Source of the DNA: a bacterium
GTDB lineage: Bacteria > Zhuqueibacterota > Zhuqueibacteria > Oceanimicrobiales > Oceanimicrobiaceae
Length of the DNA: 64,000 bases
Direction: 5' to 3'
NCBI GenBank assembly: GCA_037446635.1
Contig: JBBIIG010000001.1
Coordinates: 213,638-277,637, forward strand
Shown: positions 41,463-60,342 of the stretch, in pieces
How the letters are laid out: each line of letters starts with the position of its first letter
Position numbering within the stretch: position 1 is the first letter of the stretch
Notes under the pieces: generated by a model
Databases searched by the model: none
Told to the model about the DNA's origin: nothing
Seen by the model: only the letters and a program-made list of their open reading frames with translations
Program-made: the position numbers and the translations under genes

Positions 41463-41560
41463 CACTTCGCCGCATCCTTTGCATGATACGTCAAAAATCA
41501 CATCCGCGCCGGCGCGTTTGAATTTCCAGCGCGATGGCCTGCACGTTGATCCTGCCGTTT
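41463..41560 (-). pseudogene. Degenerate duplicate of hemB 3' end
   Basis: Aligns with 42433-42540, with small indels. Confidence 0.85.
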
Positions 41561-41577
41561 CCACGCTTAAAACAATA

Positions 41578-43394: not shown

Positions 43395-43556
43395 AGCGCA
43401 CCTTTCTGATTAAAAATTGGACGTAGATTTCGCAGCTGAACGCAGATTAAATTTTTTTGCCACGGATTCGCACGGAGGAAACACAGATTTTTTTTATTGA
43501 GATATTCGAACTACATTGCATCCGTGGGCATCTGTGTCAATCAGTGGTTTAATCTT

Positions 43557-44978
43557 TTAATTGCTATATGAATCAGCGGTTGCTGAAACCGTCGTCGGCT
43601 TTTTGCAAAACGCTGCCACCTTTTCAGCAACCCCTTCCGACTGCACGATGCAATCTCCCACGGAAATTCCGCCGCGGAAATTGCCGGAGATGAAAATTCC
43701 CGGATGATTGCGCTCAAAATTTTCGGCGGCTTCGATGCGCTGCTGGTGTCCCAACTCATATTGCGGAATCGCTTTCTCCCAACGCTTGATTTTCACGATG
43801 TCCGGCTGTCCCGCGAGTCCCATAATTTCGCGCAGATCGTTTTGCACTAATTTCAAGAGTTCATCATCGTCTCGACTCACCAACTCCGGCTGACGCATGC
43901 CGCCAACAAATGTAGTTAATGCAATGCCGCCCTCCGGCGCGCGATTCGGAAAAATGGTCGAGCTCCAAATCGTGCCGAGGAGGTTGCGCTTCTCGACTTT
44001 CGGCACGAGAAATCCGAAGCCGTCGAGGGGCCGGCAAGGCGGCTGCTTTTTGAATCCTAAGAATACCATTGCCACCGGAGGATAAACAATTTCGTGGAGT
44101 TTTTCGGAAAGCGTCGAGTCGAATGGTTGCAGCAAACTTGCTGTGACGTACGCCGGAGTGGTGAAGATCACACTTTTCGCCGTCACGATTTTCGACTGGC
44201 CGGCTTGGGTGTATTCGACTCTCCACGAATCATCATTTCGGTAAATTCTTTTGATTTCAGTTTTGGTTTGAATATTCTCGCGCAGATTCTTTTTCAAACC
44301 TTCCACCAATTCGGCCATGCCGTTTTGAAAAGAGAAAAGTTGGGCGCGAGTTTTGTCGGTCTCCGTGCGTTTCTTCCGCTCCTTCGCCCCTTTGATGGCG
44401 CCTTTGATCAAGCTGCCATAATTTTTTTCGAGGGCATAAATTTTGGCCACGGCGCTGCGCACGCTCAGCCGCTCCGGATCGCCGGCATAAACTCCGGCCA
44501 CAAACGGATTGATGGCGTAATCGAGAAATTCCTGTCCGAGCCGGCGTTTCACAAATTCGGCAATGGTTTCTTCTTTGTCCGCCGGCGCGGGAGAAATGAA
44601 CGGCTCGGCGAACAATCGCAGCTTGGCTTTCCACGAAAACAATTTTGATTTGAGAAACTGCGGCGGATTCATGGGCAGGGGCTGCAGCACGCCACCGCGC
44701 AAAACATATCGGCGACTTGCCGAGGCATTGGCGTTGACGCGACTCTCCTCCACTCCGACGGCTTTGATGAATCCGCGAATTTTGGGCGAAGTGTCGAGCG
44801 TGCTGTTGGGACCGTAGTCGATGAGAAAGCCATCGTGCTGCTCGCTCAAAATGGCGCCGCCGATGTGATCGGATTTTTCGAGGACCAAAATTTCGAAGCC
44901 GCTGCGCTGGAGGCGAAAGGCGGTGGCGAGTCCGGAGATACCGGCACCGATGATGAGGGTATCTTTTTCGAGGGTCAT
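43557..44978 (-). CDS. hemY: Protoporphyrinogen/coproporphyrinogen oxidase, HemY type
   Basis: IIGAGISGL, GPNS, GVYAGDP, GFGFLVP, IPQY. Confidence 0.93.
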   Translation of the reverse strand: MTLEKDTLIIGAGISGLATAFRLQRSGFEILVLEKSDHIGGAILSEQHDGFLIDYGPNSTLDTSPKIRGFIKAVGVEESRVNANASASRRYVLRGGVLQPLPMNPPQFLKSKLFSWKAKLRLFAEPFISPAPADKEETIAEFVKRRLGQEFLDYAINPFVAGVYAGDPERLSVRSAVAKIYALEKNYGSLIKGAIKGAKERKKRTETDKTRAQLFSFQNGMAELVEGLKKNLRENIQTKTEIKRIYRNDDSWRVEYTQAGQSKIVTAKSVIFTTPAYVTASLLQPFDSTLSEKLHEIVYPPVAMVFLGFKKQPPCRPLDGFGFLVPKVEKRNLLGTIWSSTIFPNRAPEGGIALTTFVGGMRQPELVSRDDDELLKLVQNDLREIMGLAGQPDIVKIKRWEKAIPQYELGHQQRIEAAENFERNHPGIFISGNFRGGISVGDCIVQSEGVAEKVAAFCKKPTTVSATADSYSN

Positions 44979-45062
44979 TTGCTTTGATTCAAATTTGCCA
45001 CAAAGGCACAGAGGTCACCGAGTAAAACACCATTCTTGTTAACCAGTAGAAGGCCCATGAAA

Positions 45063-45203
45063 TGCCATTTCGAGCGAAGCGAGAAATCTGACGGAGAATA
45101 GAGTCAGCGATTACGCTCATAGTTGATTTGATCAAGGGACGATCTGATTGCCGCCAGATTTCTCACCTCGACAAAAGCAAAAGCGTCGAGGTTCGAAATG
45201 ACA
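45063..45203. repeat. Bipartite inverted-repeat element
   Basis: TGCCATTTCGAGCGAAGCGAGAAATCT ... AGATTTCTC...TTCGAAATGACA, with an internal hairpin. Confidence 0.7.
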
Positions 45204-45220
45204 ATTTCCAATGGTCATTA

Positions 45221-46471
45221 TCAAACAGCCGACTCAACTTGCACTCCCTCCCAACACACCGCCTCCGTAATATGCTCGCACTGATGGCAACGCGTCGTGC
45301 GCCTCGCTTCCGAGAATTTTGGCAATTCCTGTCCGCCAATGCGGATCGGCTCAGCCGAAATCGGGCGCAACTGGCCGTTGGATGGTAACTGCACCTGCGA
45401 GATTGTCGCCTCGGCCAACGCTTGGATGAACAGCGGGTGCGAATTCAATCCACTGGTGACTTCATAATGCTGAATGCCGAACTCCTTCGCCTGATCGCGA
45501 ATCAGCATGTTGAGCTCGAACAGCGTCTCGATGTGATCGGTGACAAACGCCACCGGGATAATGAGCACCGCTTTGTGTCCAGCGTCGGCAAGTTCTTTGA
45601 GTTTGTCCGGCGTGCTGGGCGTCAGCCACTCGGCAGGACCGACTTTGCTTTGAAACGCCACGTGAAATGGCAAATCGCGTCCGCGGAAATTCATCACCTG
45701 CTCGACAGTGGAGTGAATGAGACAGCAATAGGGATCGCGGCGCTTCTTCATTTCATAAAGCGGCGTGCCGTGCGCGCTGAACACGAGCTGCATGTCCTCG
45801 CGCGCCTCTTTCGGAAATCGCTTCAGCCCCTCGTCGATGCGGCTGCTGATGGCCTGCACGAACTTCGGATGCGCCGCGTATTCGTAAACATAGGTCGTTG
45901 GCCATTTCGGGATTTCGCCGTTCTGCTCCAGCATCCACCAATAAACCAGCGACGATCCCGTGGTAGTTTTCGAATACTGCGGATAGAGCGGCAGCAGCAC
46001 CACTTTGGTCACGCCATCGCGCTGCATCTGCGCCGCGGCTTCTTCAGAGGTGGGATGCCAGTAGCGCATGGCAATATACACGCGGAATGTCACGCCCGCC
46101 GCTTTGCCGTAAGTCTGATTCAACTCGCGTTCGAGATTCTCGGCCTGCTCGCGCGTGAGTCGGTTGATGGGCGAGCCGCCGCCGATTTTCTGGTAATCGT
46201 GTCCCACCCGCTGCGACCGCCGCGTGGAGATAAATTTCGAAAGCCAATGCCGCAAAATTCCCCCAAACGGCAAATCGATGATCGCGGGATCCATGAACAG
46301 ATTGTAGAGAAATGGCTCAACATCGGCGCCGGTGTCCGGCCCGCCGAGGTTCATCAACACCACGCCAATGGTGTCGCCGGACTCGGCTTGAAGCGGTGCG
46401 GCGGGATAGTAATTGCCGGTGATTAATCGTTCATCGTATTTGTATTTTTTGAGAAAGGTTCGAGCGTCCAA
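45221..46471 (-). CDS. hemH: Ferrochelatase with Cys-rich C-terminal extension
   Basis: LMNLGGP, GGGSP, AMRYWHP, LYPQYS, FSAHG, FQSKVG..WL.P, DHIETL.E. Confidence 0.95.
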   Translation of the reverse strand: MDARTFLKKYKYDERLITGNYYPAAPLQAESGDTIGVVLMNLGGPDTGADVEPFLYNLFMDPAIIDLPFGGILRHWLSKFISTRRSQRVGHDYQKIGGGSPINRLTREQAENLERELNQTYGKAAGVTFRVYIAMRYWHPTSEEAAAQMQRDGVTKVVLLPLYPQYSKTTTGSSLVYWWMLEQNGEIPKWPTTYVYEYAAHPKFVQAISSRIDEGLKRFPKEAREDMQLVFSAHGTPLYEMKKRRDPYCCLIHSTVEQVMNFRGRDLPFHVAFQSKVGPAEWLTPSTPDKLKELADAGHKAVLIIPVAFVTDHIETLFELNMLIRDQAKEFGIQHYEVTSGLNSHPLFIQALAEATISQVQLPSNGQLRPISAEPIRIGGQELPKFSEARRTTRCHQCEHITEAVCWEGVQVESAV

Positions 46472-46504
46472 GTTTCTGACTCCTGATCTGATTTTTAACT
46501 ACGA

Positions 46505-46695
46505 GGATTAATGGATAGTTGGATCAATGGATCAATGAACGGCGAGGAGTGGTGGAGTAATGGAGTGATGGAGTAGTGTAACTCAAAACTCTGCTTTGAG
46601 ATGCAAACCAGAGGTTTGCGTTACGTCCAACATCAATCTATTGATCCATTAATCCAATAATCCGACACTCCACCACTCCAATACTCCACCACTGC
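46505..46695. repeat. Inverted arrays of 8-nt units (GGAGTAAT/GGATTAAT versus ATTAATCC/ATACTCC)
   Basis: 8-nt periodicity on both arms; similar arrays at 48138-48300. Confidence 0.75.
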
Positions 46696-46697
46696 AG

Positions 46698-48098
46698 TTA
46701 TACCGTTCGCGAATACACCGGCGTCTCCTGCGGCTTCGGCTGCTTTAGATATTTGTCGAAAACCATGGCGATGTTGCGGATGAGCAGCCGCCCCATTTCA
46801 GTGACGACGATTTTGCCGTTCGGCCATTCGATGAGTCCGTCGGCGGCGAAGCGTTCCAATTGCGGCAGCGCGTCTTCAAAATAATTGTCAAAGTTGATGT
46901 TGAATTTTTTCTCCACGCGTGATTTGTCCAATTCGAAATCGCACATGAGGCGCATAATCACATAACGCCGCAACTGATCGTCGTCGGTGAGACGGTAGCC
47001 GCGCTGCGTCGCCAGCTTGCCGCTTTCAATTCGTTTATAGTAGTGCGGGATGTCTTTGAGATTCTGCGCATACACGTTGCGCAACTGACTGATGCTCGAC
47101 ATCCCGAGTCCGTAGAGATCGCAGCCCCACTTCGTCGAGTAGCCCTGAAAATTGCGGTACAGCGTTTTCTCCCGCAGCGCCTGCGTCAGGGAGTCGTTCT
47201 CTTTGGCGAAATGATCCATGCCGATGTAAACATAGCCCACCGACGTGAGCTTCTCGATAGTTGTTTTCAAAATGCTCAGTTTCTCTGCAGCTTTTGGCAG
47301 TGTGCTTTCGTCAATTACGCGTTGATGTTTTTTCATCCACGGCACGTGGGCGTAATTGAAAATGGCCAGACGGTCCGGCGAAATATCGATGATGCGGTCG
47401 AGGGTGCGTTGGAACGAGGCCTCGGTTTGAAACGGTAGCCCGTAAATCAGGTCGAGGTTGATGCTGTCGAAGCCCCGCGCTCGCAAACCGTCGAAAGCCC
47501 AGCGCGTCAGCTCTTCGGATTGCAGGCGATTGACGGCCTGTTGCACCTGCGGCTCGAAATCCTGTACGCCCATACTGGCGCGATTAAACCCAACGTCGCG
47601 CAGGGCGTCGAGATGAGCTTCGGTCATGCCGCGCGGATCAATTTCAACGCCAATCTCAGCGTCGGGATGAAATTCGAAATGCTCGCGGGTGGCCGCAAAC
47701 AAGCGGCGAATCTGATCCGGATCGAGGTACGTGGGCGTGCCGCCGCCCCAGTGTAGCTGGGCAACCTTTCTCCCTTTTTTCGTCCGTGCCGCAATAAGTT
47801 TGATTTCTTCAATTATATAGTTGAGATAATCCTCGATGCGCTGGCGGTTGCGAGTGATGATCATCGTGCAGCCGCAAAAGTAGCACAGCGTGTCGCAAAA
47901 AGGCAGATGAAAATACAGCGACAAATCCGCGGGACTTTCGAGCTCGTTGGTTTCGCGAATTTCTTTATCGAATGCTGCCGCCGCGAATCGATCAGTAAAT
48001 TGCGGCGCGGTGGGATAGCTGGTGTAGCGCGGCCCCGGCTGATCGTACCGCCGCAGCATCTCGATGTCTACTTGCAGAGTTTTTGTTGGCGTTGACAT
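46698..48098 (-). CDS. hemN: Oxygen-independent coproporphyrinogen III oxidase
   Basis: GPRYTSYPTA, CDTLCYFCGC radical-SAM motif, GGGTP, RNFQGY. Confidence 0.96.
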   Translation of the reverse strand: MSTPTKTLQVDIEMLRRYDQPGPRYTSYPTAPQFTDRFAAAAFDKEIRETNELESPADLSLYFHLPFCDTLCYFCGCTMIITRNRQRIEDYLNYIIEEIKLIAARTKKGRKVAQLHWGGGTPTYLDPDQIRRLFAATREHFEFHPDAEIGVEIDPRGMTEAHLDALRDVGFNRASMGVQDFEPQVQQAVNRLQSEELTRWAFDGLRARGFDSINLDLIYGLPFQTEASFQRTLDRIIDISPDRLAIFNYAHVPWMKKHQRVIDESTLPKAAEKLSILKTTIEKLTSVGYVYIGMDHFAKENDSLTQALREKTLYRNFQGYSTKWGCDLYGLGMSSISQLRNVYAQNLKDIPHYYKRIESGKLATQRGYRLTDDDQLRRYVIMRLMCDFELDKSRVEKKFNINFDNYFEDALPQLERFAADGLIEWPNGKIVVTEMGRLLIRNIAMVFDKYLKQPKPQETPVYSRTV

Positions 48099-48137
48099 TG
48101 ACTACTCAATTGGTTTATTTATGTTCAAGTGGTGAGG

Positions 48138-48300
48138 GAGTATTGGAGTAATGGAGTTTTGGAGTACTGGGGTACTGAAAAAGGAAACGTCAAACGTGAG
48201 ACATGAAACGAAAATTTTGACTTTTGAAATCTGCAATTTGCAGTCTGCAATTCCATTGATCCATTAATCCATTGATCCAACAATCCAACTCAACACTCCA
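48138..48300. repeat. Inverted arrays of 8-nt and 7-nt units
   Basis: GGAGTATT/GGAGTAAT ... TCTGCAA units ... CCATTGATCCATTAATCC. Confidence 0.7.
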
Positions 48301-48308
48301 GAACTCGA

Positions 48309-49373
48309 TTACTCCATCGAGGAACCCCGCAACTTTTCACTCTCCTCCTTCACAAACTCAACCATGGCCTTTGCGTTTTCCACCGGCGTCTGCGGCAGAA
48401 TGCCGTGGCCTAAATTGAAAACGTGGCCGGCACCATCGCCGGCCTTTTCTAAAATTTTGATGACTTCCGCGCGCAGCCGATCCTTCGGCGCAAACAATGC
48501 GCACGGATCTAAATTGCCCTGCAACGCGACTCTATCTCCAACTTGTTTGCGAACTAATGCAAGATCGGCGGTCCAGGAAAGTCCGAGGGCATCGGCGCCG
48601 ATTTTTGACAGCGGTTCGAGGGAGTAACGCGCATCGCGGGCAAAAACGATGATCGGCTCGCCACTGCGTTTGATGCTCTGCACGACTTGCTTCAAATACG
48701 GCAGCGAGAATTCCCGAAAATCATCGGGGGATAACTGGCCGGCCCAGCTGTCGAAAATCTGCACCACTTGCGCACCGGCTTCAATCTGCGCGCTGAGAAA
48801 ATCGGCCACAGCGACGGTTAGTTTCTCCAACAAATTTTTTAGGAGCCCGGGGGACGTGTACATCAGACTTTTGATTTTCGTGAAATCCTTCGAACCCTGT
48901 CCTTCGACCATATACGCCGCCAGCGTCCACGGCGCGCCGGCAAATCCGATGAGCGGCACGCGGCCGTTCAATTCTTTGCGAACCAGTTTCAGTGCCTGCA
49001 AAACAAAATCGAGACCTTCTTCCGGAATCACCGGCCGCAGCTTCTCGAAATCCTTGGGATCGCGCAGTGGCGCCTCGAACACCGGCCCCCGACCTTCGTG
49101 AAAATTCAGCGCCATGCCCATGGCTTCGGGAATGACGAGAATATCGGAAAAAATAATGGCCGCGTCAACCCCGATAATGTCCACTGGCTGCAGCGTTACC
49201 TCGGCGGCCAACTCCGGCGAGTGGCACATCGTCATGAAATCGGCCTTCGCGCGGACTTTCTGATATTCGGGCAAATAGCGGCCAGCTTGTCGCATGATCC
49301 ACACTGGCGTTCTCGGCGTCGGCTCGCGGCGGCAGGCTTTGATGAGCAGATCGTTTTTTAGTTTTTCAGTCAT
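48309..49373 (-). CDS. hemE: Uroporphyrinogen decarboxylase
   Basis: WIMRQAGRYLPEY, FSDIL, QIFDSW, QGNLDP, FNLGHG. Confidence 0.97.
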   Translation of the reverse strand: MTEKLKNDLLIKACRREPTPRTPVWIMRQAGRYLPEYQKVRAKADFMTMCHSPELAAEVTLQPVDIIGVDAAIIFSDILVIPEAMGMALNFHEGRGPVFEAPLRDPKDFEKLRPVIPEEGLDFVLQALKLVRKELNGRVPLIGFAGAPWTLAAYMVEGQGSKDFTKIKSLMYTSPGLLKNLLEKLTVAVADFLSAQIEAGAQVVQIFDSWAGQLSPDDFREFSLPYLKQVVQSIKRSGEPIIVFARDARYSLEPLSKIGADALGLSWTADLALVRKQVGDRVALQGNLDPCALFAPKDRLRAEVIKILEKAGDGAGHVFNLGHGILPQTPVENAKAMVEFVKEESEKLRGSSME

Positions 49374-49394
49374 TAGCAAAATTCCACTATTCTT

Positions 49395-49423
49395 GTAGGG
49401 AACGCATTCTATGCGTTCCCTAC
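49395..49423. repeat. GTAG-type REP palindrome overlapping hemD stop
   Basis: GTAGGGAACGCAT-tct-ATGCGTTCCCTAC. Confidence 0.75.
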
Positions 49424-50209
49424 TTCGGTATAAAAATCCGCGATGGCTTGGGCTAAATCTGGAATCGTGGATTTCGCCGGCACAATGTTTGCCAGCAATT
49501 CCAGCTCGCGCAACGCCTCTGCGGTGACGCCGCCAATTGCGGCGATCTTGCATCCGTGTTTCAGCCAGCGTTCTATTTTATCGCGCCCAATTAACGCAAC
49601 AAAATTTCGAACCGTCGCGGGACTGGTGAAGGTCAGCACATCAACTGAATGGCCATTGAGCGCTTTGGCAATTTCGGAAGAATTGCATTGCGCTGGCGGT
49701 TGATTTTTGTAAACTGCCACGGTATCGACCTGCGCGCCTAATTTGACTAACTCATTCACCAAAACCTCGCGACTTTCTTGAGCTTTCGGAATGAGGATTC
49801 GCTTCCCGCGCAGGTCGATCTCGGAGAAAGCTTTCGCCAACCCTTCGGCGCGAAATTCCTCGGGCACGAGATCGACGCGCACGCCGATTTCTTGCAACGC
49901 CATTTTCGTTCTTTCTCCTACGGCTGCGATTTTCGCCGCATTCAATTCGGAAATGGAGCGGCCTCTTCCCTCGAGTCGTTTCACAAAAAATCTCACCCCG
50001 TTAACGGAAGTAAAAATCAGCCAGTCATAGCGAGATAGATTTTCGAGAGCAGCGTCGCAGGCTTCCCATGAATCCGGTGGCACGATTTCAATCGTTGGAA
50101 TCGCAATCACCTCCGCGCCCAAATGTTTGAGCGGCGCGATGAGCTCATGCGCTTGATCTTGCGCGCGGGTGACGATGATTCGTTTTCCGGCGAGTGGCTT
50201 CTTCATCAC
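49409..50209 (-). CDS. hemD: Uroporphyrinogen-III synthase
   Basis: IIVTRA, FTSVNGV, AVGERT, VYKN, FTSPATV, AIGGVT. Confidence 0.93.
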   Translation of the reverse strand: MMKKPLAGKRIIVTRAQDQAHELIAPLKHLGAEVIAIPTIEIVPPDSWEACDAALENLSRYDWLIFTSVNGVRFFVKRLEGRGRSISELNAAKIAAVGERTKMALQEIGVRVDLVPEEFRAEGLAKAFSEIDLRGKRILIPKAQESREVLVNELVKLGAQVDTVAVYKNQPPAQCNSSEIAKALNGHSVDVLTFTSPATVRNFVALIGRDKIERWLKHGCKIAAIGGVTAEALRELELLANIVPAKSTIPDLAQAIADFYTEVGNA

Positions 50210-51114
50210 GAGTTCTCTTTCAAAACCAACGCCACTTTTTCGGCAACGGCCCTGGCCTCTTCAATTCTGCCAGCAACTTTTTCTTTTCTAAAATGACTTC
50301 CATCTTCTTCCGCTACAAATGCGTGGAAGATCATTTGCCCGCCGTTGATTTCACAAAAGCCGCCCATCGGTGTCTGGCAGCCGCCGCCCATCGCTGCGAG
50401 AAATGTGCGCTCGGCGATGACGGCAATTTCCGTGAGTTGATGATTCAGCGGTTTCAGCAGAGATTCGGTCTCGTGATCGTTTTCACGAATCTCGACGCCC
50501 ACGGCGCCCTGTCCTACAGCCGGGATCATCAAATCATAGTTCAAATATTGCTGGATGCGGTGCTGCCAACCCATCCGGGTTAAACCAGCTGCCGCGAGAA
50601 CGATACCGTCGTATTCTTCACTCTCCGCTTTTCGCAGCCGCGTGTCGATGTTACCGCGAATAGCGATGATTTCAAAGTCCGGCCGCAGCGTCAGCAACTG
50701 AGATTTTCGTCGCAAACTGCTGGTGCCGATTTTCGCGCCCGCCGGCATTTCCTCCAAATTCTTTTTAAAGTGCGTCACAAAAACGTCGCGCGGGTCAACT
50801 CGCTCGGTGATGGCGCCAATCTTCAATCCCGCCGGAAATTCAGTTGGTAGGTCTTTCATACTGTGCACCGCAATATCGATTTCATTTTCGAGCAGTTTGT
50901 CCTCGATCTCCTTCACGAAAACGCCTTTGCCCGGCATCCGGCTCAATGCGGTGTCCAAAACCTTGTCGCCGGTGGTGACGATCTCGATGATCTGAATTTG
51001 CAGTTGCGGCTGGAGTTGCAAAAGCTGGTCGATGACGGCGTGGGTCTGAGCTTTGGCTAACGCACTGCGCCGGGTACCGACGCGCAGTGGTCTATTTAAA
51101 TCGTAGGAATACAA
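50206..51114 (-). CDS. hemC: Hydroxymethylbilane synthase
   Basis: GTRRSALA, GKGVFVKEIE, VHSMKD, GTSSLRR, GGGCQTP. Confidence 0.96.
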   Translation of the reverse strand: MYSYDLNRPLRVGTRRSALAKAQTHAVIDQLLQLQPQLQIQIIEIVTTGDKVLDTALSRMPGKGVFVKEIEDKLLENEIDIAVHSMKDLPTEFPAGLKIGAITERVDPRDVFVTHFKKNLEEMPAGAKIGTSSLRRKSQLLTLRPDFEIIAIRGNIDTRLRKAESEEYDGIVLAAAGLTRMGWQHRIQQYLNYDLMIPAVGQGAVGVEIRENDHETESLLKPLNHQLTEIAVIAERTFLAAMGGGCQTPMGGFCEINGGQMIFHAFVAEEDGSHFRKEKVAGRIEEARAVAEKVALVLKENS

Positions 51115-52422
51115 TTACGCTCTGTTTTCTCCGCGAAGCGAATCGGATGACAACCCAAAGAGATTGCGAACGGCAGCGGTGTAGCTCTGGCCGTTGCCCT
51201 CGGCAGCTTCCGCTCGCAAACGCACGATGGGCTGATGCAGCATTTTGTTGACGATGCGCCGAGCCAACTCCTGCACTACCTGCACGTCGTGCTCTGGCAG
51301 CTCGGCTTGCAGACGGCGCAGCGCGCGTTCCACTTCCTGCGACTGAATATCTTCCGCGAAACTGCGCAGGTCGGTGATCACAGGCGTGACTTCCAGCGAC
51401 TGCCGCCACGCCGCAAAATTGGCCATTTCTTGTTCAATGATATTTTTCGCTTTGGTGATTTCCGCGCAGCGTTTGCCGCCGTTGCTGTCCAACTCAGATT
51501 TGAGATGATCGATATTATAAAGCTTAACTGAATTCAGAGCGCTGACTTCCGGATCGACGTCCCGGGGGACGGCCATGTCAACGATCAGCAGCGGGCGGAA
51601 CCCACGGTTGGCCAGCGTTTGCTGCACCATCCCTTTGCTCAACACAACATGCGGCGCGCCAGTCGAGCTGATAACCACGTCCGCATTTTTGAGGCAATCT
51701 TCGAGTTTATCAAATCCAAAGAATTTGACATTGAGTCTGGCAGCAACGTCTTTCACTTTTTCTTCCGTGCGATTGATCACTGTAACATCGCTTGCCCCAC
51801 CTTTCAACAGCGCCTTCACCGCCAACAAACTCATTTTGCCCATGCCGATTACCAAAATGTTGAGACCGGTCAGCCCGCCGAACGATTTCTTCACCAACGC
51901 CACCGCGGCATGGCTGACCGAAGCCGAGTGCTCGCTGAGGGCGGTTTCGGTGCGCACGCGCTTGCCGACGGTCAACGCATTGCGGAACAGCGCCGAAAGC
52001 AGCGGCCCAACGGTTTTGAATTTTTGCGCTGCCTCAAACGCCTCTTTAATTTGACCCTGAATTTGCGCTTCTCCTAAAATCATCGATTTCAAGCCACTGG
52101 CAACCGAGAAAAGATGCTGCTCCACCTCAGCGCCTTCAAGAACGTAGAGATAGGGCTCAAAATCTTTGCGGGGCGTTTTTTTAAAATTGGAAACAAATTC
52201 CTTTATTTGTTGGATACCCGCCTGCGCGTTTTTTACCGCCGCATAAATTTCGACGCGATTGCAGGTGGAGAGAATTACGGCTTCTTCAATTTGCGAGTAC
52301 GAATTTTCATGCTTGAAGAGTTTGACCAAAGCCTCGGCTAAAATGGAGGGGTGAAAGGCGAGTTTTTCACGAAGTTCTACTGGGGCCGTTTCATGGTTAA
52401 GTCCTATCAAAACATAGTGCAT
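51115..52422 (-). CDS. hemA: Glutamyl-tRNA reductase
   Basis: GLNHETAPVELRE, catalytic STCNRVE, GEAQI, IGMGKM, DMAVPRD, dimerisation domain (NKMLHQP). Confidence 0.97.
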   Translation of the reverse strand: MHYVLIGLNHETAPVELREKLAFHPSILAEALVKLFKHENSYSQIEEAVILSTCNRVEIYAAVKNAQAGIQQIKEFVSNFKKTPRKDFEPYLYVLEGAEVEQHLFSVASGLKSMILGEAQIQGQIKEAFEAAQKFKTVGPLLSALFRNALTVGKRVRTETALSEHSASVSHAAVALVKKSFGGLTGLNILVIGMGKMSLLAVKALLKGGASDVTVINRTEEKVKDVAARLNVKFFGFDKLEDCLKNADVVISSTGAPHVVLSKGMVQQTLANRGFRPLLIVDMAVPRDVDPEVSALNSVKLYNIDHLKSELDSNGGKRCAEITKAKNIIEQEMANFAAWRQSLEVTPVITDLRSFAEDIQSQEVERALRRLQAELPEHDVQVVQELARRIVNKMLHQPIVRLRAEAAEGNGQSYTAAVRNLFGLSSDSLRGENRA

Positions 52423-52445
52423 AAGATTGATTCGCCTCAATTACT

Positions 52446-52464
52446 AATAATAACGATTATTATT
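52446..52464. promoter_or_regulatory. Fur-like box in hemA leader
   Basis: AATAATAACGATTATTATT; 13/19 match to GATAATGATAATCATTATC. Confidence 0.55.
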
Positions 52465-52479
52465 TATCGCCGCTGCTTT

Positions 52480-52495
52480 ATCAAAAATAGTGCCA
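52480..52495 (-). promoter_or_regulatory. Sigma-54 (-24/-12) promoter of hem operon
   Basis: TGGCACTATTTTTGAT, with consensus spacing TGGCAC-N5-TTG(C>A)W. Confidence 0.65.
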
Positions 52496-52587
52496 TCAAT
52501 AGTAGTAGCCCGGCCCATAACGTTATCCTCTTGAAAATGCAGTTATTATCGTCCCTCTCAAACTTCACTTTTAATGTCCTCCCTGGC

Positions 52588-52615
52588 CGGTTTTTTTCCA
52601 ATATGAAAAAAACCG
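52588..52615. promoter_or_regulatory. Candidate activator-binding site (UAS)
   Basis: CGGTTTTTTTC-CAATAT-GAAAAAAACCG, about 95-120 bp upstream of the -24 box; core resembles 60257-60273. Confidence 0.55.
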
Positions 52616-52679
52616 AACTAAATTGAAAAGTCAGATACGACGCCAGCGCTCATAAAAGTGAAATCAACAAAAATTGTTG

Positions 52680-52708
52680 TTGACATTGGAGATTTTTTTT
52701 GATATTAT
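52680..52708 (+). promoter_or_regulatory. Sigma-70 promoter of porin/iron operon
   Basis: TTGACA-17-TATTAT. Confidence 0.7.
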
Positions 52709-52746
52709 GGTGGCCTACAAATTCAAATTAGTCAATAACTTAACTC

Positions 52747-52763
52747 ATAATCGGAACGATTAT
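52747..52763. promoter_or_regulatory. Fur-like box in porin leader
   Basis: ATAATCG-GAA-CGATTAT perfect inverted repeat (ATAAT-N7-ATTAT). Confidence 0.55.
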
Positions 52764-52785
52764 TAAATTGAAGGAGAAAAAACAA

Positions 52786-54084
52786 ATGGCAAGATTTTTG
52801 TTGATTTTGGTAAGCATTTTTTTGGTTTTTGGTTTTCAAGCCGTCGTAGCGCAGCAATCGACCGAGCAGGACACCCTGCGTGAGTTGATGCGCCGCATTG
52901 ATATCTTAACGGAAGAAATAGAAAAATCCAAACTGGGCGAAGTGGCCGAGCCAAAATACGAAAGCCGCTTTGGAATGGGGCCGGCGGCGTCGCGAGTTTA
53001 TCAATTAACTAAAACCGGCGTTTCTATTTCAGGCTACGGGGAGGTGGTTTATAATAATTTTGCCCGCGAGCAGGATAACGGCGTTGCAGCCACTCGCCGG
53101 GACCAAATTGACTACCTGCGCCACATCACCTATTTTGGGTTTCGTTTCAATGATTGGCTGCTTTTCAATTCTGAAATCGAATTTGAACACGCTAAAACCG
53201 GCAGCGGTTCACCTGGAGAGGTTGCGATTGAGTTTGGTTACGTCGAGGCGAGGCTTCATTCCGCTGTCAACTTTCGCGCGGGAATGGTGCTGGTGCCAGT
53301 GGGAATTGTGAACGAATTTCATGAGCCTTCCACCTTTCACGGCGCGCTTCGCCCCGAAACCGAACAGCAGGTCATCCCCACCACCTGGCGAACCAATGGC
53401 TTCGGATTTGTTGGTGAAACCAAAACCGGGGTAGGCTATAAACTCTATCTGATCGAAAGCTTGAACGCCGCCAATTTTTCCTCCAGCGGCATTCGTAGCG
53501 GCCGGCAAAACGGCGCGCAGGCGATCGCGGAAGACCTGGCGATCGCCGGCAAGTTGAATTACACCGGCGTCACTGGTTTGGACATTGGCGGCTCGTTCTA
53601 CGTCGGCAACACCGCGCAAGCCCTGACGGACACTTCCGGCAATGAAATTGACGCCCGGCTGGCCTTGTTTTCACTCCATTTTATGTTTGCACGAAAAGGG
53701 CTGGAGTTGCGCGGCCTCTTCGCTCAATCCACCATTTCCGACGTCGAAGAATTGAATGTCGTGCGCGGGTTCACCGGCGCAAATTCCATCGGCGAAAGAC
53801 AATACGGTTACTACTTTACGCTGGCGTATGACCTGCTGCCGCTGCTGGCTAAAGGAACAACGCACTATCTTGCGCCGTTCGTGCAATATGAAAAACTCAA
53901 CACTCAGGCGGAAGTGCCCGCTGGCTTTGCCAAAAATCTCGCGCGCGAACGCAGCAACTTGACGCTGGGACTAACCTATAAACCGCATCCCAACGTGGCG
54001 TTCAAACTCGATTACATCAACCGCGACGACGAGGCCAACAGCGCGCTCGATCAATTTAATGTTGCAGTCAATTACCTGTTCTAA
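52786..54084 (+). CDS. Outer-membrane porin-like beta-barrel (porin O/P-like)
   Basis: Signal peptide, coiled coil, ISGYGE, FNSEIEFEH, NEFHEP, C-terminal YLF; AAGGAG RBS. Confidence 0.82.
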   Translation: MARFLLILVSIFLVFGFQAVVAQQSTEQDTLRELMRRIDILTEEIEKSKLGEVAEPKYESRFGMGPAASRVYQLTKTGVSISGYGEVVYNNFAREQDNGVAATRRDQIDYLRHITYFGFRFNDWLLFNSEIEFEHAKTGSGSPGEVAIEFGYVEARLHSAVNFRAGMVLVPVGIVNEFHEPSTFHGALRPETEQQVIPTTWRTNGFGFVGETKTGVGYKLYLIESLNAANFSSSGIRSGRQNGAQAIAEDLAIAGKLNYTGVTGLDIGGSFYVGNTAQALTDTSGNEIDARLALFSLHFMFARKGLELRGLFAQSTISDVEELNVVRGFTGANSIGERQYGYYFTLAYDLLPLLAKGTTHYLAPFVQYEKLNTQAEVPAGFAKNLARERSNLTLGLTYKPHPNVAFKLDYINRDDEANSALDQFNVAVNYLF

Positions 54085-54088
54085 CCAG

Positions 54089-54631
54089 ATGATCAACTTT
54101 TGGAATTTAGTTCTATTGACTTTGGTTGTATTCTCAACAAGCTTTGGCCAGGTTTTCAAAAACCAGGAAGAGGTTTTGAAGGAGGCCTTTCCAAAAAATT
54201 GCACGGTGGATAGAAAGGTCGCTTTTCTAACCCCGGAGCAGATCAATAAAATTGAAAAACTGGCCAAAGCAAAATTAGAATCCAAATTGATAACCTATTA
54301 TGTTGGCAGTCTGGAGGACAGCACGATCGGATACGCCTTCTTTGAAACCAACGTGGTTCGCACCAAGCCAGAGACCTTTGTGGTGACTCTCAACCCGGAT
54401 GGCTCCATCAAATTCGTTGATATTCTCGCGTTTTATGAGCCGCTGGACTACCTCCCCACCCCACGTTGGCTGAAACTGTTCAACGGGAAAATTCTAAGCG
54501 ATAACCTCTGGCCCAAACGCGAAATTCACAACATCACCGGGGCGACGCTTTCGGTGCAAGCGATCACGCTGGGGACGCGAAAAATCCTTGCCATTTATCA
54601 GGTCGCCATTCAACCGGAGAAAACCCATTGA
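54089..54631 (+). CDS. Periplasmic FMN-binding protein
   Basis: Signal peptide, FYEP.DY, ITGATLS flavinylation motif. Confidence 0.85.
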   Translation: MINFWNLVLLTLVVFSTSFGQVFKNQEEVLKEAFPKNCTVDRKVAFLTPEQINKIEKLAKAKLESKLITYYVGSLEDSTIGYAFFETNVVRTKPETFVVTLNPDGSIKFVDILAFYEPLDYLPTPRWLKLFNGKILSDNLWPKREIHNITGATLSVQAITLGTRKILAIYQVAIQPEKTH

Positions 54632-55161
54632 AGTACATGCAAAACGGCGGCTACCAGAGCTCGCATCTGATGCGGCTGACGCTGCTACTAACGTTACTAT
54701 TTTTGACCGGATTCTGGGTCACCAACTTCGCGCTCTATTTTGCAAAGATGAGTCTGTCGCCGCTTTCGGTCAAAAATTATTACCTCGGCTCGGAAGAAAA
54801 TTACACCATGCCGCGCACCTACCAATCGATGCTGGAAGTCACGCACTCGCATCTGCCGATGATGGCGTTGGTGGTGCTGCTGGTTACGCATCTGCTCATC
54901 TTCGTGCCCTACGCACCGCGAACTAAAGTTCTGCTGATTGTTGGCGGATTCGCACTCGCGCTGCTCAATGAATCCGCCGGCTGGCTGGTGCGGTTTGTTC
55001 ATCCGGCGTTCGCCTGGTTGAAGGTGATGTCGTTCGCTTTATTTCAAATCGTGCTGGGATTTCTCATTTTTGCATTGGCGTTTTTTCTGATTAGCGGACG
55101 CGCCGTGAAGTTTAATTCCCCAAAATCACCACCGCCGCGCGGACGTTCCAAAACGCCATGA
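54628..55161 (+). CDS. Hypothetical membrane protein (about 4 TM, His-containing)
   Basis: EVTHSHL...LVTHLL; translationally coupled to the FMN-binding gene. Confidence 0.8.
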   Translation: MKYMQNGGYQSSHLMRLTLLLTLLFLTGFWVTNFALYFAKMSLSPLSVKNYYLGSEENYTMPRTYQSMLEVTHSHLPMMALVVLLVTHLLIFVPYAPRTKVLLIVGGFALALLNESAGWLVRFVHPAFAWLKVMSFALFQIVLGFLIFALAFFLISGRAVKFNSPKSPPPRGRSKTP

Positions 55162-55211
55162 GATTTAATTTCTAACCCGCTCTATTTCAAATAGCAACCG
55201 GGCTTTCTTGG

Positions 55212-55359
55212 CTAAGGTGATTAAATATGATGGATTACTGGATTAATTCGGTTGGCCTTTCATTGATCCATTAATCCAACGCTCCATTACTCCAAATTGT
55301 AACAACTTAGATTTCATTGTCATAAACTTGTTGGACTTCAAGATTTGTCAATATTCAGG
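55212..55359. repeat. Dispersed ~150-bp intergenic element, copy 2
   Basis: Aligns with 2520-2677. Confidence 0.75.
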
Positions 55360-55369
55360 CTAAAAGCAC

Positions 55370-57373
55370 ATGAGACAAAAAATCGTTTTTGCGTTCATCC
55401 TCTCGCCGCTGCTGTTTGCGGTCGTCTTCCTACTGCTGCCAGCCGACAACGCCGCTAATCGAGCCTCGGATCCCGCCGGCAACGGCGTTTCCAATTCAGC
55501 AGCCGTCTCCGCGGACAGGCTAATCTTTCTCTTACAATATATCAGCATCGACTACGGCGGCGCGGTGGCAAACCAGCGCGTCATCAATGAATTCGAATAC
55601 AGCGAAATGCTGGACTTCGCAGCCACCGCGGACGAATGGTACTCGCAACTCCGTGGGAAAAACAGCGATCCTTTCACGCAGCAAAAACTTCAGCAGCTAA
55701 AAAGTTTAGTCGAAAGCAAAGCCAACTGGTCTGAAATCAAAGACAGCGCCGGCGAGCTGATTCATCAATTGTCGCAAGAATTGAACGTCATCCCCTACCC
55801 AACGAAAACTCCCAATTTGAAAGTGGGGCAAAATCTTTATCGCCAGGTCTGCGCCGACTGCCACGGCAGCAGCGGCGATGGCCGCGGCCCCGCGGCGGCG
55901 TGGCTCAATCCGCCGCCGAGCAATTTCCAAAACAATGAACGAATGAACTTGGCCACGCCCCACCAATTTTTCAACGCCATCACCTTCGGCGTCGCCGGCA
56001 CCGCCATGCCTTCCCATCAGCAGGCGCTCAGCGACCAACAACGGTGGGACATCGCCTTTTATTTGATGACGTTGCGGCAGGGATTCAATCCGCGGACACC
56101 GGCGGGCGACGTCAAGCTTTCGGTGAACGAACTTGCCGGCGCTTCCAACACCGAGCTCGCGGCAAAACTTAAATTCGACGCGAAGAATATCGACGAATCG
56201 AATCTTTTTTCCACGGTGGATTACTTTCGCCAAAATCCGCCGCAGGTCAGCGTTGAAGAGCAGCTTACCTTCACCCGCCAAAAACTGCACGAAAGTTTGA
56301 CGGCTTACAAAAACGCCGATTTCACCGGCGCGCTGAACGCCATCACCGACGCCTACCTTGCCGGCGTGGAGCCATTGGAAGCGCAGCTCCGAAGGGCGGA
56401 TGTAACGGCCCTCGAAATGGAATTCAGCAAATTACGCAACGCCATTCTCACGCAGCGGCCGTTCTTTGAGGTCGAGGTGCACTACGACAACCTCGACCGG
56501 CGGCTCAACGAAATCCGCACCGCCGGACCATCGGTCGCGCAGCGCGGCTTCGTTCTGCTGCAGTCGTTGACCATCATTTTAAGAGAAGGCATCGAAGCGA
56601 TTCTACTCATCGCGTTGATGTTCACCTACCTGGTTTCCGCCGGCTACAGCAATCTGAAAAAATACGTCGTCAGCGGCGCGCTCGCGGGGCTGGCTGCCGG
56701 CGGGCTAGCCTGGTTTACCGCGCAGTTTTTGCTGACGATCTCCATCATCCAGCAGGAGGCGCTGGAAGGAATCACCTCTTTGCTGGCGGCGGCGGTGCTG
56801 TTTTTCGTCAGCTTTTGGATCATTCACAAAGTCGATATTCGCAAGTGGAAAACTTTCATCCGCACGAAAGCAGAAAAAGCGCTGGGGACCGGCAGCGGCC
56901 TGGCGTTGTCCGCGGTAGCGTTTCTGGCGGTATTTCGGGAAGCCTTTGAAACGGTTTTGTTCTATCAGGTTTTGTGGCTGCGCAGCGATGCCGAACGAAC
57001 GAGCGTCGTGCTCGGCTTCGTGCTGGGCGCGGCGGCGCTAGCCTTGGTTCTCTACCTCGTTTTCAAATTAGGTGCGAGGCTGCCGCTGAAACCGTTTTTC
57101 ATTAGCACCGGGATTCTGTTAGGCATGCTGGCGTTCATGTTTGCCGGCTACGGCGTGCGCGAGTTGCAGAACATCGGCGTGTTGAAAGAGACCCTGCTGC
57201 CGTGGGATCTCCGCTGGCCGGTTTTAGAAATTCATCCCACCGTGGAAGGCCTCGCGCTACAAATGGCAATGCTGATTTCGTTTATCCTGGGGTGGTTTTC
57301 AGTGTTAGCGGAAAAATTGAAAAAAGCGGAAAAGCGGATTCGTTTGCGGCCGGTGGCGGTCAAAACGGATTAA
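55370..57373 (+). CDS. Cytochrome c / FTR1 iron permease fusion (PbrT-like)
   Basis: CADCH heme motif, GTAMP axial Met, REGIE and REAFE FTR1 motifs. Confidence 0.92.
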   Translation: MRQKIVFAFILSPLLFAVVFLLLPADNAANRASDPAGNGVSNSAAVSADRLIFLLQYISIDYGGAVANQRVINEFEYSEMLDFAATADEWYSQLRGKNSDPFTQQKLQQLKSLVESKANWSEIKDSAGELIHQLSQELNVIPYPTKTPNLKVGQNLYRQVCADCHGSSGDGRGPAAAWLNPPPSNFQNNERMNLATPHQFFNAITFGVAGTAMPSHQQALSDQQRWDIAFYLMTLRQGFNPRTPAGDVKLSVNELAGASNTELAAKLKFDAKNIDESNLFSTVDYFRQNPPQVSVEEQLTFTRQKLHESLTAYKNADFTGALNAITDAYLAGVEPLEAQLRRADVTALEMEFSKLRNAILTQRPFFEVEVHYDNLDRRLNEIRTAGPSVAQRGFVLLQSLTIILREGIEAILLIALMFTYLVSAGYSNLKKYVVSGALAGLAAGGLAWFTAQFLLTISIIQQEALEGITSLLAAAVLFFVSFWIIHKVDIRKWKTFIRTKAEKALGTGSGLALSAVAFLAVFREAFETVLFYQVLWLRSDAERTSVVLGFVLGAAALALVLYLVFKLGARLPLKPFFISTGILLGMLAFMFAGYGVRELQNIGVLKETLLPWDLRWPVLEIHPTVEGLALQMAMLISFILGWFSVLAEKLKKAEKRIRLRPVAVKTD

Positions 57374-57428
57374 ATGACAGGCGGATCAGGCCAAGTTTTT
57401 CCTCCTTTATTTTTCTTTTTGGTTGCGC

Positions 57429-59402
57429 TCAATTGGAATGCCGCTGCTGCGAACTAGTGATGTGGTACTCCTTCATTTTCCGCCACAACGTGGTGCGGCC
57501 AATTCCCAAAATTTTGGCCACCAGATCATAGTTCCAATCGAATTCCTGCAGCGTCGCGGCGATGTGATTTTTTTCCAAATTCTTCAAACTCAAATCGGCG
57601 GCGTCGGCGCGGTGGTTGGTCGCGGTAGGTTTGAACATATTTTGGGGGAAATCTGCCTTGCTTAAATATTTTCCCAAACACAACGCCGCCGCCCGCTCGA
57701 TGGCGTTCTCCAACTGGCGCACGTTGCCGGGCCAATCGTATTCGCACAACAGCTTCTGCGCTTCCTCGTCGATGCCGTAAATGGTTTTGTGAATTTTTTC
57801 CGCGTATTTTTTGGTGAAAAATTCCGCCAGCGGCAGAATATCTTCTCGATGATCTCGCAGCGGCGGAATGGTGATTTGAATCACATTCAAACGATAATAC
57901 AAATCCTGCCGGAACAATCCCTGCGCGATCATCTCTTCCAAATCGCGGTTGGTCGCGGTAATCAATCGCACATCCACCTTCAGCGTTTGATGACTTCCCA
58001 CGGGCTTGATTTCTCCCTCTTGCAAAAAGCGCAAAAGTTTAACCTGCATCGCCAGAGAGGTTTCGCCAATTTCGTCCAAAAAAATGGTGCCGTGGTTGGC
58101 CGCTTCGATTAAACCTTTTTTGTTGTGAGTGGCGCCCGTGAACGCGCCGCGCACGTGCCCAAACAACTCGCTCTCCAGCAAACTTTCCGGCAGAGCGCCG
58201 CAGTTGACGACAATGAAAGGATTTTGCGCGCGGCTGCTGTGCTCGTGAATGGCGCGGGCAATCAATTCTTTGCCGGTGCCGCTCTCGCCATCGATGAGCA
58301 CGGAAATATCGGTCTGCGCGATGCGCGCCACCAGCTCCAGAATATTCTGCATCGCCGGACTTTTGCCAATGATGTTCCCGAAACGATATTCTTCTCGTGA
58401 ATTGACCCAGGCGATAAAATCATCCACTTCGCGATCGATGAGCTGTTCGATCACCGCGGCCACCTTCTGATGTTCTTTCAAATTGCTGGCGACGATTTTT
58501 TCCAGATCGCGCTTGTTGTAATAATAAATGTTGTACACGTCCGAAAGGTTGAGCTTTTCAAAAACATCCGGCTGCGAATCGTCCAGATAAGAGACAAACA
58601 ACAGCGGCCGGTTATTGCGCCGGCTCATCATTCTTGAGATCTGCTGCTGTTCAAAAATCGGCGCGAAATCTTTGCTGTACATCAGCAGCAAGTCGATAGA
58701 CGGCAGAACCTGACTGAGCTGCTCGGTCTTAATTTTCGCGCCGCCAAAACGCTCAATCAACGACGCGCTCTTGTTATGAAAATCCACAAGGAAAAGTTCG
58801 CCAATATTCTGCTCTTTTAGTTTTTTAACGAGCGGCTCAAAGGAATAACCGTCCGCGGCGATCAGCGCTTTGTGGTCTTTGAGATCGCCGAACATTTTCT
58901 GGGCGATCTCCACCAGCACTGATTCCGCGGTGATGGCGTTTTTTTGAACATTAAGCTGGATTCGGATTTTCTCCGCCAACCACAAACCGCGCTGAAAAAG
59001 TTTATTTAACTTCGGACCCACCAGGTTCAAACTGCGGGACTTTTCAAACGCCTTCCGAAAGTCTTCAAGCGAATGCGTCATCTCCCCCGCTGCATCCATG
59101 CCAATTGCCAGCCGGAAAAATTCACGCAGGGCATCCGGGCCATCGGCGCGGAAACGACGGCTTTGCAAAACCTCAGCCGGCGCTTCGTATTCTTTTTGCA
59201 GTTCCACATAAAATTTTGAAATCAAAATGTCCCGCTGCTCTGCCACCGCGAAGATTTGTATTCTCTCCCCAGCTTGATAGACAAACATCTCCTGCGCCGA
59301 AAGTTTTTTGCCGGCAAACTCGGCGAGAGTGGTCAAGTTGCGCGCCCAGCTCTCCCGCGCTTGTGACTCGGAATAATCAAAACCGAAGGTAAAAATTGGC
59401 AT
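57429..59402 (-). CDS. Sigma-54-dependent activator with N-terminal degenerate glutamyl-tRNA reductase domain
   Basis: [38 protein letters not shown], Fis HTH; N-terminal ~335 aa is collinear with HemA. Confidence 0.9.
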
Positions 59403-59408
59403 AGCCGC

Positions 59409-60236
59409 TTATTGAAAATTATGAAACTTTGAAAAAAACAAATTGACAATGATAAACGAAAACAACAACCAGTTGAACCCGATCACCGACACCACGGCCG
59501 CTCGCAAACCCTGCCAGCCGACGATTTTCCGCGTCACATAGTGCGCGAGGTAAATGGCCCACGAAATCACCACCGCCAGCAGTTTTGGGTCTAGCGCCCA
59601 GCGGCCCTCCCAGACCCTCGTCCCCATGTAGAACCCCAGAACGATGCCAAGGCTCACCACAATTAAGCCGATGTTCACGGCTTGATTGCTGAGCTTGTCC
59701 ACATATTCCAATGACGGCAGCCGCTGAAAAAAAATCCCCAACTTTCTCGTGCGCATTTCCCGCGCCAACAAAATGTACATGATGCTGGTGATGAACGAGA
59801 TACTGAACGCTGCGTAAGCGGAGATCATAATCGCCACGTGCACCTCAAACAACAGTATGGTGCTCAGCAACTCGGCAAGCGGTTTATCGAAGTCAATGAA
59901 AGCGCTGGAGATGCCGTGTAAGATGAGAATGATGGGAATGAAAAACACGCCCATCGTCATCACTTTGGCGCGAATTTCGATGATGAGATAGACCAGCACA
60001 AAAAACCAGGCGCAGGTGGTCAGCACCTGAAAGACGTCGCCCACTGGAATGTGCTGTAGTTTCAAACCGAGCAAGATCAAATAAATGGTATGACACCCGG
60101 CTGAGAGCGCCAGCCAAAATCGCAGCCGAGACTCGGTTGCCTGTTTTTTTATTCGGAAATAATAAAAATAATAGCCGAAGCTCACGCCGTACAAAACGAA
60201 CACCAGCCAACTGAGAGACCGCAGAATTTCGATCAC
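59409..60236 (-). CDS. HemX/CcsA-like cytochrome c assembly family membrane protein
   Basis: HIP, EVHV...AY, RLPSLE, WEGRWALDPK, GWQG.RAA, C-terminal FH; about 8 TM helices. Confidence 0.9.
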   Translation of the reverse strand: MIEILRSLSWLVFVLYGVSFGYYFYYFRIKKQATESRLRFWLALSAGCHTIYLILLGLKLQHIPVGDVFQVLTTCAWFFVLVYLIIEIRAKVMTMGVFFIPIILILHGISSAFIDFDKPLAELLSTILLFEVHVAIMISAYAAFSISFITSIMYILLAREMRTRKLGIFFQRLPSLEYVDKLSNQAVNIGLIVVSLGIVLGFYMGTRVWEGRWALDPKLLAVVISWAIYLAHYVTRKIVGWQGLRAAVVSVIGFNWLLFSFIIVNLFFSKFHNFQ

Positions 60237-60256
60237 TTTTCACCCAAAAATTTTCG

Positions 60257-60273
60257 ATTTTCATTTTGAAAAT
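60257..60273. promoter_or_regulatory. Palindrome at promoter of ccsA-activator operon
   Basis: ATTTTCA-TTT-TGAAAAT, overlapping the -10 of a minus-strand TTGCAT-17-TATTTT promoter. Confidence 0.55.
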
Positions 60274-60342
60274 AGGAAATCCTGCTCTGAAATGCAAGCA
60301 CGGAATAGGTAAGGATAATTCTCCCTTTCCGTATCTTGGTTA

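Follow-up and report, generated by a model that had tools for sequence, protein, structure and literature searches.

A sigma-54 activator with a dead glutamyl-tRNA reductase domain, apparently coupled to HemX, in the probable control of heme supply across the phylum KSB1

Why should a glutamyl-tRNA reductase (GluTR, HemA) that has lost its catalytic residues be fused to a transcriptional activator? The question is raised by a 64,000-nucleotide stretch of contig JBBIIG010000001.1 (assembly GCA_037446635.1, phylum KSB1 or Zhuqueibacterota; the window hereafter), in which a hemX-type membrane gene is followed by a gene for a HemA-like domain joined to a sigma-54 activator, close to the intact hemA and the rest of the heme synthesis genes (Table 1). 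An earlier note on the window had as its central idea that this pseudo-HemA activator, in partnership with HemX, uses an upstream palindrome to drive the hem operon and also binds at its own promoter. The comparative genomics reported here strongly supports it: the sigma-54 circuit for heme supply is phylum-wide and apparently undescribed, its regulator derives from an inactive duplicate of the enzyme that opens the pathway, and HemX is coupled to it. Our literature searches, with most subscription journals outside their coverage, found no description of the fusion, and the main text of the one paper found on the phylum (PMC11683472) mentions neither heme nor sigma factors.

Searches of the fusion identified the domains GlutR_N, Shikimate_DH, Sigma54_activat (PF00158, E-value 4e-75), an AAA lid and HTH_8, while the GluTR dimerisation domain GlutR_dimer (PF00745) was not matched; the reading frame starts 6 nt behind the PF01578 hemX-type gene on the same strand. 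The N-terminal part, which we call the sensor, has 23% identity to the intact HemA of the same genome, and its predicted structure (pLDDT 88.7) had as its top Foldseek match the glutamyl-tRNA reductase 1GPJ (E-value 2e-17). Conserved patches in the sensor read LAxKIFG, QRxLWLxEKxR and YN. The window fusion has neither the TCNR cysteine nor an intact GxGxxG motif, and it has Walker A, Walker B and GAFTGA. In an alignment the catalytic cysteine was present in 0 of 63 fusions as against 44 of 44 HemA proteins, the second glycine of GxGxxG was retained in just 5 of the 63, and the substrate-binding residues were likewise not conserved; the GluTR model TIGR01035 scored the window fusion at 121 bits, against a cut-off of 210. 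The activation loop read GAFTGA in 58 of the 63, GSFTGA in one and GAFSGA in one, was truncated in one and was broken in two (GAFPGA in G159, locus L022, and GAVAEA in G011, L180; G and L numbers denote genomes and loci), in which the circuit seems to be decaying. No NCBIfam activator model reached its cut-off for the fusion, the best scoring 367 bits against 795. The dead HemA fused to a sigma-54 activator behind hemX that the earlier note described is thus real, given these domains, the lost motifs and the 6-nt gap; by sequence the protein qualifies as a sigma-54 enhancer-binding protein, for which ATP-dependent activation and enhancer binding are predicted, and its N-terminal part would be a GluTR fold that is not an active glutamyl-tRNA reductase. 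Since the entire two-domain GluTR fold is kept, the sensor might be imagined as a decoy for glutamyl-tRNA or NADPH, or as one half of a heterodimer with the real HemA that reads pathway flux. We rejected both on the absence of a dimerisation domain and on the lost motifs, GxGxxG and the substrate-binding residues among them; the module also persists in genomes without hemA, as described below, and these ideas are hardly credible.

Table 1. Features of the window that bear on the circuit (positions counted from the first nucleotide of the window).
Feature	Positions	Strand	Basis
hemX-type gene, PF01578, 275 aa, 8 helices	59409..60236	-	domain match, helix topology
Pseudo-HemA::sigma-54 activator fusion, 657 aa	57429..59402	-	domain matches
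Sensor part of the fusion, aa 1-338, GluTR catalytic and NADPH-binding folds	58389..59402	-	alignment, predicted structure
AAA+ sigma-54 activation domain and lid of the fusion, aa 344-599, with LDEI	57606..58373	-	domain match
Fis-type HTH of the fusion, aa 606-646, recognition helix strongly conserved	57465..57587	-	PF02954, E-value 2e-14
hemA, intact glutamyl-tRNA reductase	51115..52422	-	TIGR01035, 458 bits
Rest of hem cluster: hemC, hemD, hemE, hemN, hemH, hemY, hemB, unrelated ORF, hemL	39340..51114	-	domain/family matches
Sigma-54 promoter of hem operon, TGGCAC-N5-TTGA, A for C at -12 as in many relatives	52480..52495	-	-24/-12 pattern
Tandem enhancer: strong site 52595-52609 and weak site 52615-52629, 20-bp period	52595..52629	-	matrix, conservation
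Single perfect operator TTTTCA-AAA-TGAAAA, overlapping -10 of hemX promoter	60258..60272	-	palindrome, matrix
Inferred sigma-70 promoter of hemX-activator operon, TTGCAT-17-TATTTT	60269..60297	-	by eye from conservation in relatives; below scanner threshold
AT-rich palindrome in hemA leader (the earlier Fur-like box), kept in the one congener, overlapping possible second sigma-70 promoter	52446..52464	.	13/19 to Fur consensus
Sigma-70 promoter of iron operon, TTGACA-17-TATTAT, 11/12 consensus positions	52680..52708	+	promoter scan
Neighbouring operon: exported protein of 438 aa (unassigned), FMN_bind protein, 177-aa membrane protein, cytochrome c-FTR1 iron permease fusion	52768..57373	+	ORFs, domain matches

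A survey of the phylum with a profile of the sensor domain matched 65 of 167 KSB1 genomes. Taking away two unpublished genomes, on which no claim here rests, and adding G069, where a truncated ORF is 89% identical to the fusion of G073, leaves the fusion in 64 of 165 published genomes; related genomes are not independent samples, and all our counts are to be read as patterns and not as statistics. A hemA above cut-off was found in 48 genomes, 42 of which also have the fusion, and a further 22 have the fusion without hemA. The survey had been set beforehand as a point at which the idea could fail, as a one-off fusion without conserved context would have spoken against it. In the event the context was conserved, with hemX immediately 5' of the fusion in 62 of 63 loci (the sole miss being at a contig edge), rpoN in 67 of 70 genomes tested as well as in the window's own genome, and a sigma-54 element before hemA in 13 of the 14 held-out genomes described below. 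Neither hemA above cut-off nor the activator was found in 95 of the 167 genomes, so that heme synthesis is confined to a minority of the phylum. A scan beyond the phylum with a narrow alignment yielded 18 fusions, all of KSB1 type or of uninformative origin, and otherwise ordinary HemA loci.

As to where the fusion came from, a quick tree of 79 rows placed all true HemA in one clade (SH-aLRT 99), with the fusions outside it; this fits a single origin of the fusion, a claim limited by the long branches and by the tree being a quick one only. Three genomes without the fusion (G075, G084 and G085) have hemX directly before the real hemA. It is quite likely, judging from these arrangements, that an ancestral hemX-hemA pair was duplicated and that the copy behind hemX lost catalysis and exchanged its dimerisation domain for the AAA+ and HTH domains. 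Two divergent fusions, P0048 and P0068, from a search of representatives without taxonomy, lay nearest to true HemA in the quick tree, and P0068 retains part of the GExQ motif; they are possible intermediates.

Where the fusion might act was sought upstream of hemA. Among 47 such regions, 27 contain GG[CT][AG][CT]-N5-TTG at 53-194 nt before the gene, and 25 of these also have a tandem TTTTCA-N3-TGAAAA pair with a period of 20-22 bp, the pair being missing only from a contig that is cut short and from a genome that lacks the fusion. An enhancer matrix trained on these regions was run over up to 1.3 kb upstream of hemA, two loci being dropped as too short, and gave pair scores of at least 20 in 24/24 training genomes and in 13/14 held-out activator genomes (mostly with a siroheme-synthase gene first), compared with 1/7 genomes without the activator and 0/60 non-KSB1 hemA loci, the best of which scored 10. 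As a guard against circularity the matrix was retrained on 10 genomes from other orders for the test on the window; in the 4.6-Mb genome the window's hemA site then ranked first, both as a pair and as a pair plus promoter (2867 candidate promoter sites), and the site at the regulator's own promoter ranked second as a pair. The -24/-12 promoter proposed before hemA was recovered, and the palindrome proposed upstream of it, 134 nt from the -24 site, turned out to be a tandem pair with the top rank in the genome. The single held-out failure, G011, is the genome with the GAVAEA loop and has a decayed -24/-12 site as well, so activator and site decay together.

From these comparisons we are highly confident that the activator would bind the tandem TTTTCA-N3-TGAAAA enhancer. 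Very probably, then, the fusion is a sigma-54 enhancer-binding protein predicted to sit at tandem sites some 95-225 nt upstream of a -24/-12 promoter and to activate the hem operon or, where this has been lost, an operon for a lipoprotein and a TonB receptor. In one genome, G076, the enhancer is present and no fusion was detected, as would be expected if enhancer and promoter belonged to a different activator and the fusion regulated something else. This is very improbable, given that the site tracks the fusion (13/14 against 1/7), recurs on the fusion's own promoter, decays in G011 where the fusion's loop is broken, and that the target operon adjoins the fusion in G009, G145, G146 and the metagenome locus L256. 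Two unusual hemA genes were seen along the way: a second hemA in G007 (L152, G007:C58), whose nucleotide motif is altered and which has no upstream enhancer, and P0150, an 837-residue protein in which an intact HemA is fused to two repeats that we take to be AsnC/AhbAB-like.

The second of these sites is the palindrome that had been reported at the regulator's own promoter, and it is indeed there. A strong single site upstream of hemX, usually on the -10 of the inferred sigma-70 promoter, was found in 17 of 19 loci from the window's family and one sister family, whereas no site reaching a score of 10 was found upstream of hemX in the 38 other fusion loci (two rows dropped), so autoregulation is limited to a lineage; the earlier autoregulation reading holds for those two families and not for the remaining 38 loci. 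From the position of the operator on the hemX -10 we infer autorepression, the activator damping its own sigma-70 promoter in the window's family.

What does the activator do in genomes that have no hemA? All 22 of these also lack hemC, and 12 of them are at least 90% complete; some of the less complete ones are probably assembly gaps (in G096 hemL stands beside the fusion). Ferrochelatase and hemE were absent from 5/5 such genomes tested, and each of five tested has several heme-copper oxidase subunits. Strict tandem patterns gave nothing in ten genome searches. A search for perfect single sites in five genomes without hemA, followed by matrix scoring, led to the same 160-residue lipoprotein gene in four of them, followed in 4/4 by a 770-residue TonB receptor and then, where the DNA extended far enough, by a 241-residue membrane protein. 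The enhancer element precedes 16 of 16 close orthologues of the lipoprotein with upstream DNA (one more had 8 nt upstream only), and among 11 distant homologues it was found before two, both in activator genomes. This operon lies beside the activator in the four loci named above. In two families the lipoprotein is present in 13/18 genomes without hemA as against 3/9 with it, and within two genera the one replaces the other: in the first, G148 and G151 have hemA and G149, G150 and G152 the lipoprotein; in the second, G008 has hemA and G009 the lipoprotein. As the same element stands on the hem operon or, in genomes without hemA and hemC, on the lipoprotein-TonB operon, the regulon looks like heme supply by synthesis or import; since the module persists in genomes without hem genes and there points at the TonB-receptor operon, the circuit is broader than synthesis. 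By this sequence context the lipoprotein, the receptor and the membrane protein probably import heme. No Rfam family, the cobalamin riboswitch included, was matched in 8 loci or in the window, and in the ESM Atlas the lipoprotein and the 241-residue membrane protein matched unnamed clusters only.

Further genes carry the element or lie near the operon. A subtilase next to the regulator, with enhancer and a -24/-12-like site, was seen at L184:3193-4332(-) and L186:1365-2510(+) (G127, G135) and in the metagenome locus L259 downstream of 8592(-); that it frees heme from proteins is only a guess. At L170:5389-7530(+) and L259:4703-6871(+) a FecA-like TonB receptor gene stands after hemL and carries this element too, with pair scores of 22 and 36; here, in another family, the circuit may have a real connection with iron uptake. 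The 438-residue iron-operon protein of the window has a homologue in G166, encoded immediately after the TonB-receptor operon (L222:1214-2506(-)).

The gene in front of the fusion has the three features by which HemX was recognized in PMC5801465, namely PF01578, eight helices and an adjoining GluTR-fold gene; that paper reports hemX adjoining a GluTR-fold gene in 106 of 113 hemX genomes. His133 and His272 are present in 59/59 rows of our HemX alignment and His232 in 48/59, and all three align with CcsBA histidines; by position, following PMC10663686, these would be the P-His1, P-His2 and TM-His heme-ligand positions. Its predicted structure matched that of CcsA/CcsBA (7S9Y) with a TM-score of 0.69. 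An FxxR loop (FxxRLP) is invariant and, provided that the N-terminus lies outside, cytoplasmic by helix topology. Erosion has affected the WWD motif, the residue before DPK being mostly L, W or F (W in 16/59), and TIGR03144 scored 117 bits against a cut-off of 188. We considered identity with the cytochrome c synthase CcsA and rejected it on this erosion, on the absence of an adjacent ccsB and on the presence of separate maturation genes elsewhere: in G002, G038 and G117 the second PF01578 copies that were inspected keep WWD in full and lie behind a 430-465-residue gene read as ccsB, and the window's genome has two other PF01578 genes, for which CcmF and CcmC are suggested by length alone. Divergent from hemX, a SulP-STAS-cNMP transporter gene (60537-62753(+)) lies near the module in several family members as well.

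How, then, would the activator be told when to act? We infer that heme is the signal and HemX its receptor, heme being indicated because the two target operons are alternative ways to supply it. HemX would use its CcsA-type histidines to bind heme within the membrane; loaded with heme, it would bind the dead GluTR fold, and the activator would be held inactive or destabilised, in the manner of PspA, a coiled-coil protein, and PspF, an activator without a regulatory domain. When heme is scarce the activator would be free to oligomerise on the enhancer and open the promoter. We put the probability of this input model, in which heme-loaded HemX would serve as an anti-activator by analogy with the Psp pair, at roughly 0.6. 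A larger proposal, which we regard as possible rather than probable, is that HemX acts as a heme receptor in the membrane and touches the GluTR fold directly, and that in KSB1 this ancient HemX-HemA contact has been turned into a signalling pair, a membrane anti-activator and a pseudoenzyme-gated activator, that runs either synthesis or, where the pathway is gone, a hitherto unrecognised lipoprotein-TonB heme importer without the canonical histidine.

A number of observations weigh against this account of heme control. The TonB receptor scored best on the heme-receptor model TIGR01785, at 176-180 bits (cut-off 317), with the B12 model close behind at 146-164, and fell far short of the cut-off in either case; the histidine between FRAP and NPNL is missing in 4/4 receptors, and no His or Met is conserved in the lipoprotein alignment. 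For four of the 12 activator genomes without hemA that are at least 90% complete (G065, G087, G139, G159) the searches gave no target, and heme homeostasis offers no obvious explanation for the presence of the element before secreted subtilase genes (three loci) and FecA-like receptor genes (two loci). The metagenome fusion (L256, L257) has no hemX within 10 kb upstream, and G076 has the enhancer and a regulator-type hemX with no detectable activator. At hemA itself, a 10/12 sigma-70-like promoter (52456-52484(-)), found also in the congener G054, overlaps the -12 element and the AT-rich palindrome, so that hemA may not depend wholly on sigma-54 in this genome. Finally, the genetics of Staphylococcus aureus did not fit a simple direct repression of GtrR by HemX, and no partner of HemX was known (PMC5801465).

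Two other accounts of the input deserve weighing. With the regulon unchanged, the dead GluTR fold could itself sense heme or a small molecule, HemX being a co-transcribed heme shuttle or acting on the real HemA; the fusion without adjacent hemX, the G076 hemX without a detected activator and a few Met and Tyr positions conserved in 45-48 of 59 sensor rows would agree with this. We consider it unlikely, as hemX stays with the fusion even where a genome offers it no real HemA as a target, and as no His or Cys is conserved in even half of the 59 sensor rows while the HemX histidines are invariant. Alternatively HemX could be a positive or a redox/oxygen sensor, its bound heme reporting respiratory state or outside heme and switching the activator on. 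The two invariant histidines do map to the periplasm-facing heme site of CcsA, substrate-induced uptake systems such as Has and Fec exist, and a protease and an iron receptor are among the targets; yet the same element drives synthesis genes, where induction by heme would be positive feedback, and in Bacillus and Staphylococcus the action of HemX is negative (PMC5801465, PMC10991733). We regard this second account as improbable.

The earlier note had also linked an iron-uptake operon and Fur-like boxes to the circuit. The operon is present, ends in the cytochrome c-FTR1 gene and is a conserved neighbour in this family, its four genes lying divergently between hemA and the regulator; as for its control, it has a canonical sigma-70 promoter of its own and no Fur support, and being divergent with such a promoter it is a neighbour rather than a demonstrated target of the activator. 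A sigma-54 promoter for it was considered and rejected, the second-ranked match in the genome consisting of the porin-like gene's own start codons set against the same enhancer. The Fur boxes did not hold up either: a 13/19 match to the E. coli Fur consensus is background level in a genome with 724 sites at 13/19 and a best site elsewhere of 16/19. A palindrome TAATCG-GAA-CGATTA lies just before the iron operon's first gene (52748-52762) and is found also in G054 and G068; it is a candidate metal-regulator site. In G057 the iron operon is followed by a DtxR/MntR-like gene. Within the hem cluster a 285-residue ORF (41578-42435(-)) without an NCBIfam match separates hemB from hemL, and we take its start to resemble a PIN domain.

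How HemX controls HemA has been open since 1994; according to PMC5801465 and PMC10991733, HemX of Bacillus and Staphylococcus is a negative regulator acting post-transcriptionally, with mechanism and partner undefined. Because the KSB1 module would be a transcriptional read-out of the action of HemX on a GluTR fold, heme binding, contact surface and direction of control become testable by reporter. The module would also add an enzyme-derived input domain to the sigma-54 activators and put heme synthesis under sigma-54 control, and it leads us to expect that some respiring KSB1 lineages are heme auxotrophs and that a new operon for heme import exists.

Among known systems, the sigma-54 activators NtrC, NifA, NorR, PrpR and RtcR share with the fusion an N-terminal regulatory domain, an AAA+ domain with GAFTGA, a C-terminal HTH and palindromic enhancers before a -24/-12 promoter (PMC4987338); the fusion differs in that its input domain is a dead glutamyl-tRNA reductase, its predicted targets are heme supply genes and its enhancer often lies beyond the usual 80-150 bp. 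PspF-PspA (PMC4987338) resembles our model in keeping a sigma-54 activator in check by means of a second protein, whereas the anti-activator proposed here would be an eight-helix heme-handling membrane protein working through an enzyme-derived domain. With CcsA/CcsBA (7S9Y) our HemX shares the fold and the aligned histidines, and it differs in its eroded WWD motif and in having no adjacent ccsB, just as the sensor shares both domain folds of glutamyl-tRNA reductase (1GPJ, 4N7R, 5CHE) and differs in its lost cysteine, substrate residues, nucleotide motif and dimerisation domain. HrrSA and ChrSA of Corynebacterium likewise place hem genes under heme-dependent transcriptional control (PMC10991733), but through a kinase and a response regulator, whereas the KSB1 system has no phosphorelay and uses sigma-54. 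Closest is HemX-GtrR (HemA) of Bacillus subtilis and S. aureus, where a PF01578 gene also adjoins a GluTR-fold gene and heme feeds back (PMC5801465); there HemX lowers the abundance of an active enzyme with its transcript unchanged, whereas in KSB1 the neighbour is a dead copy fused to an activator, and the hemX-fusion pair has survived the loss of the whole pathway.

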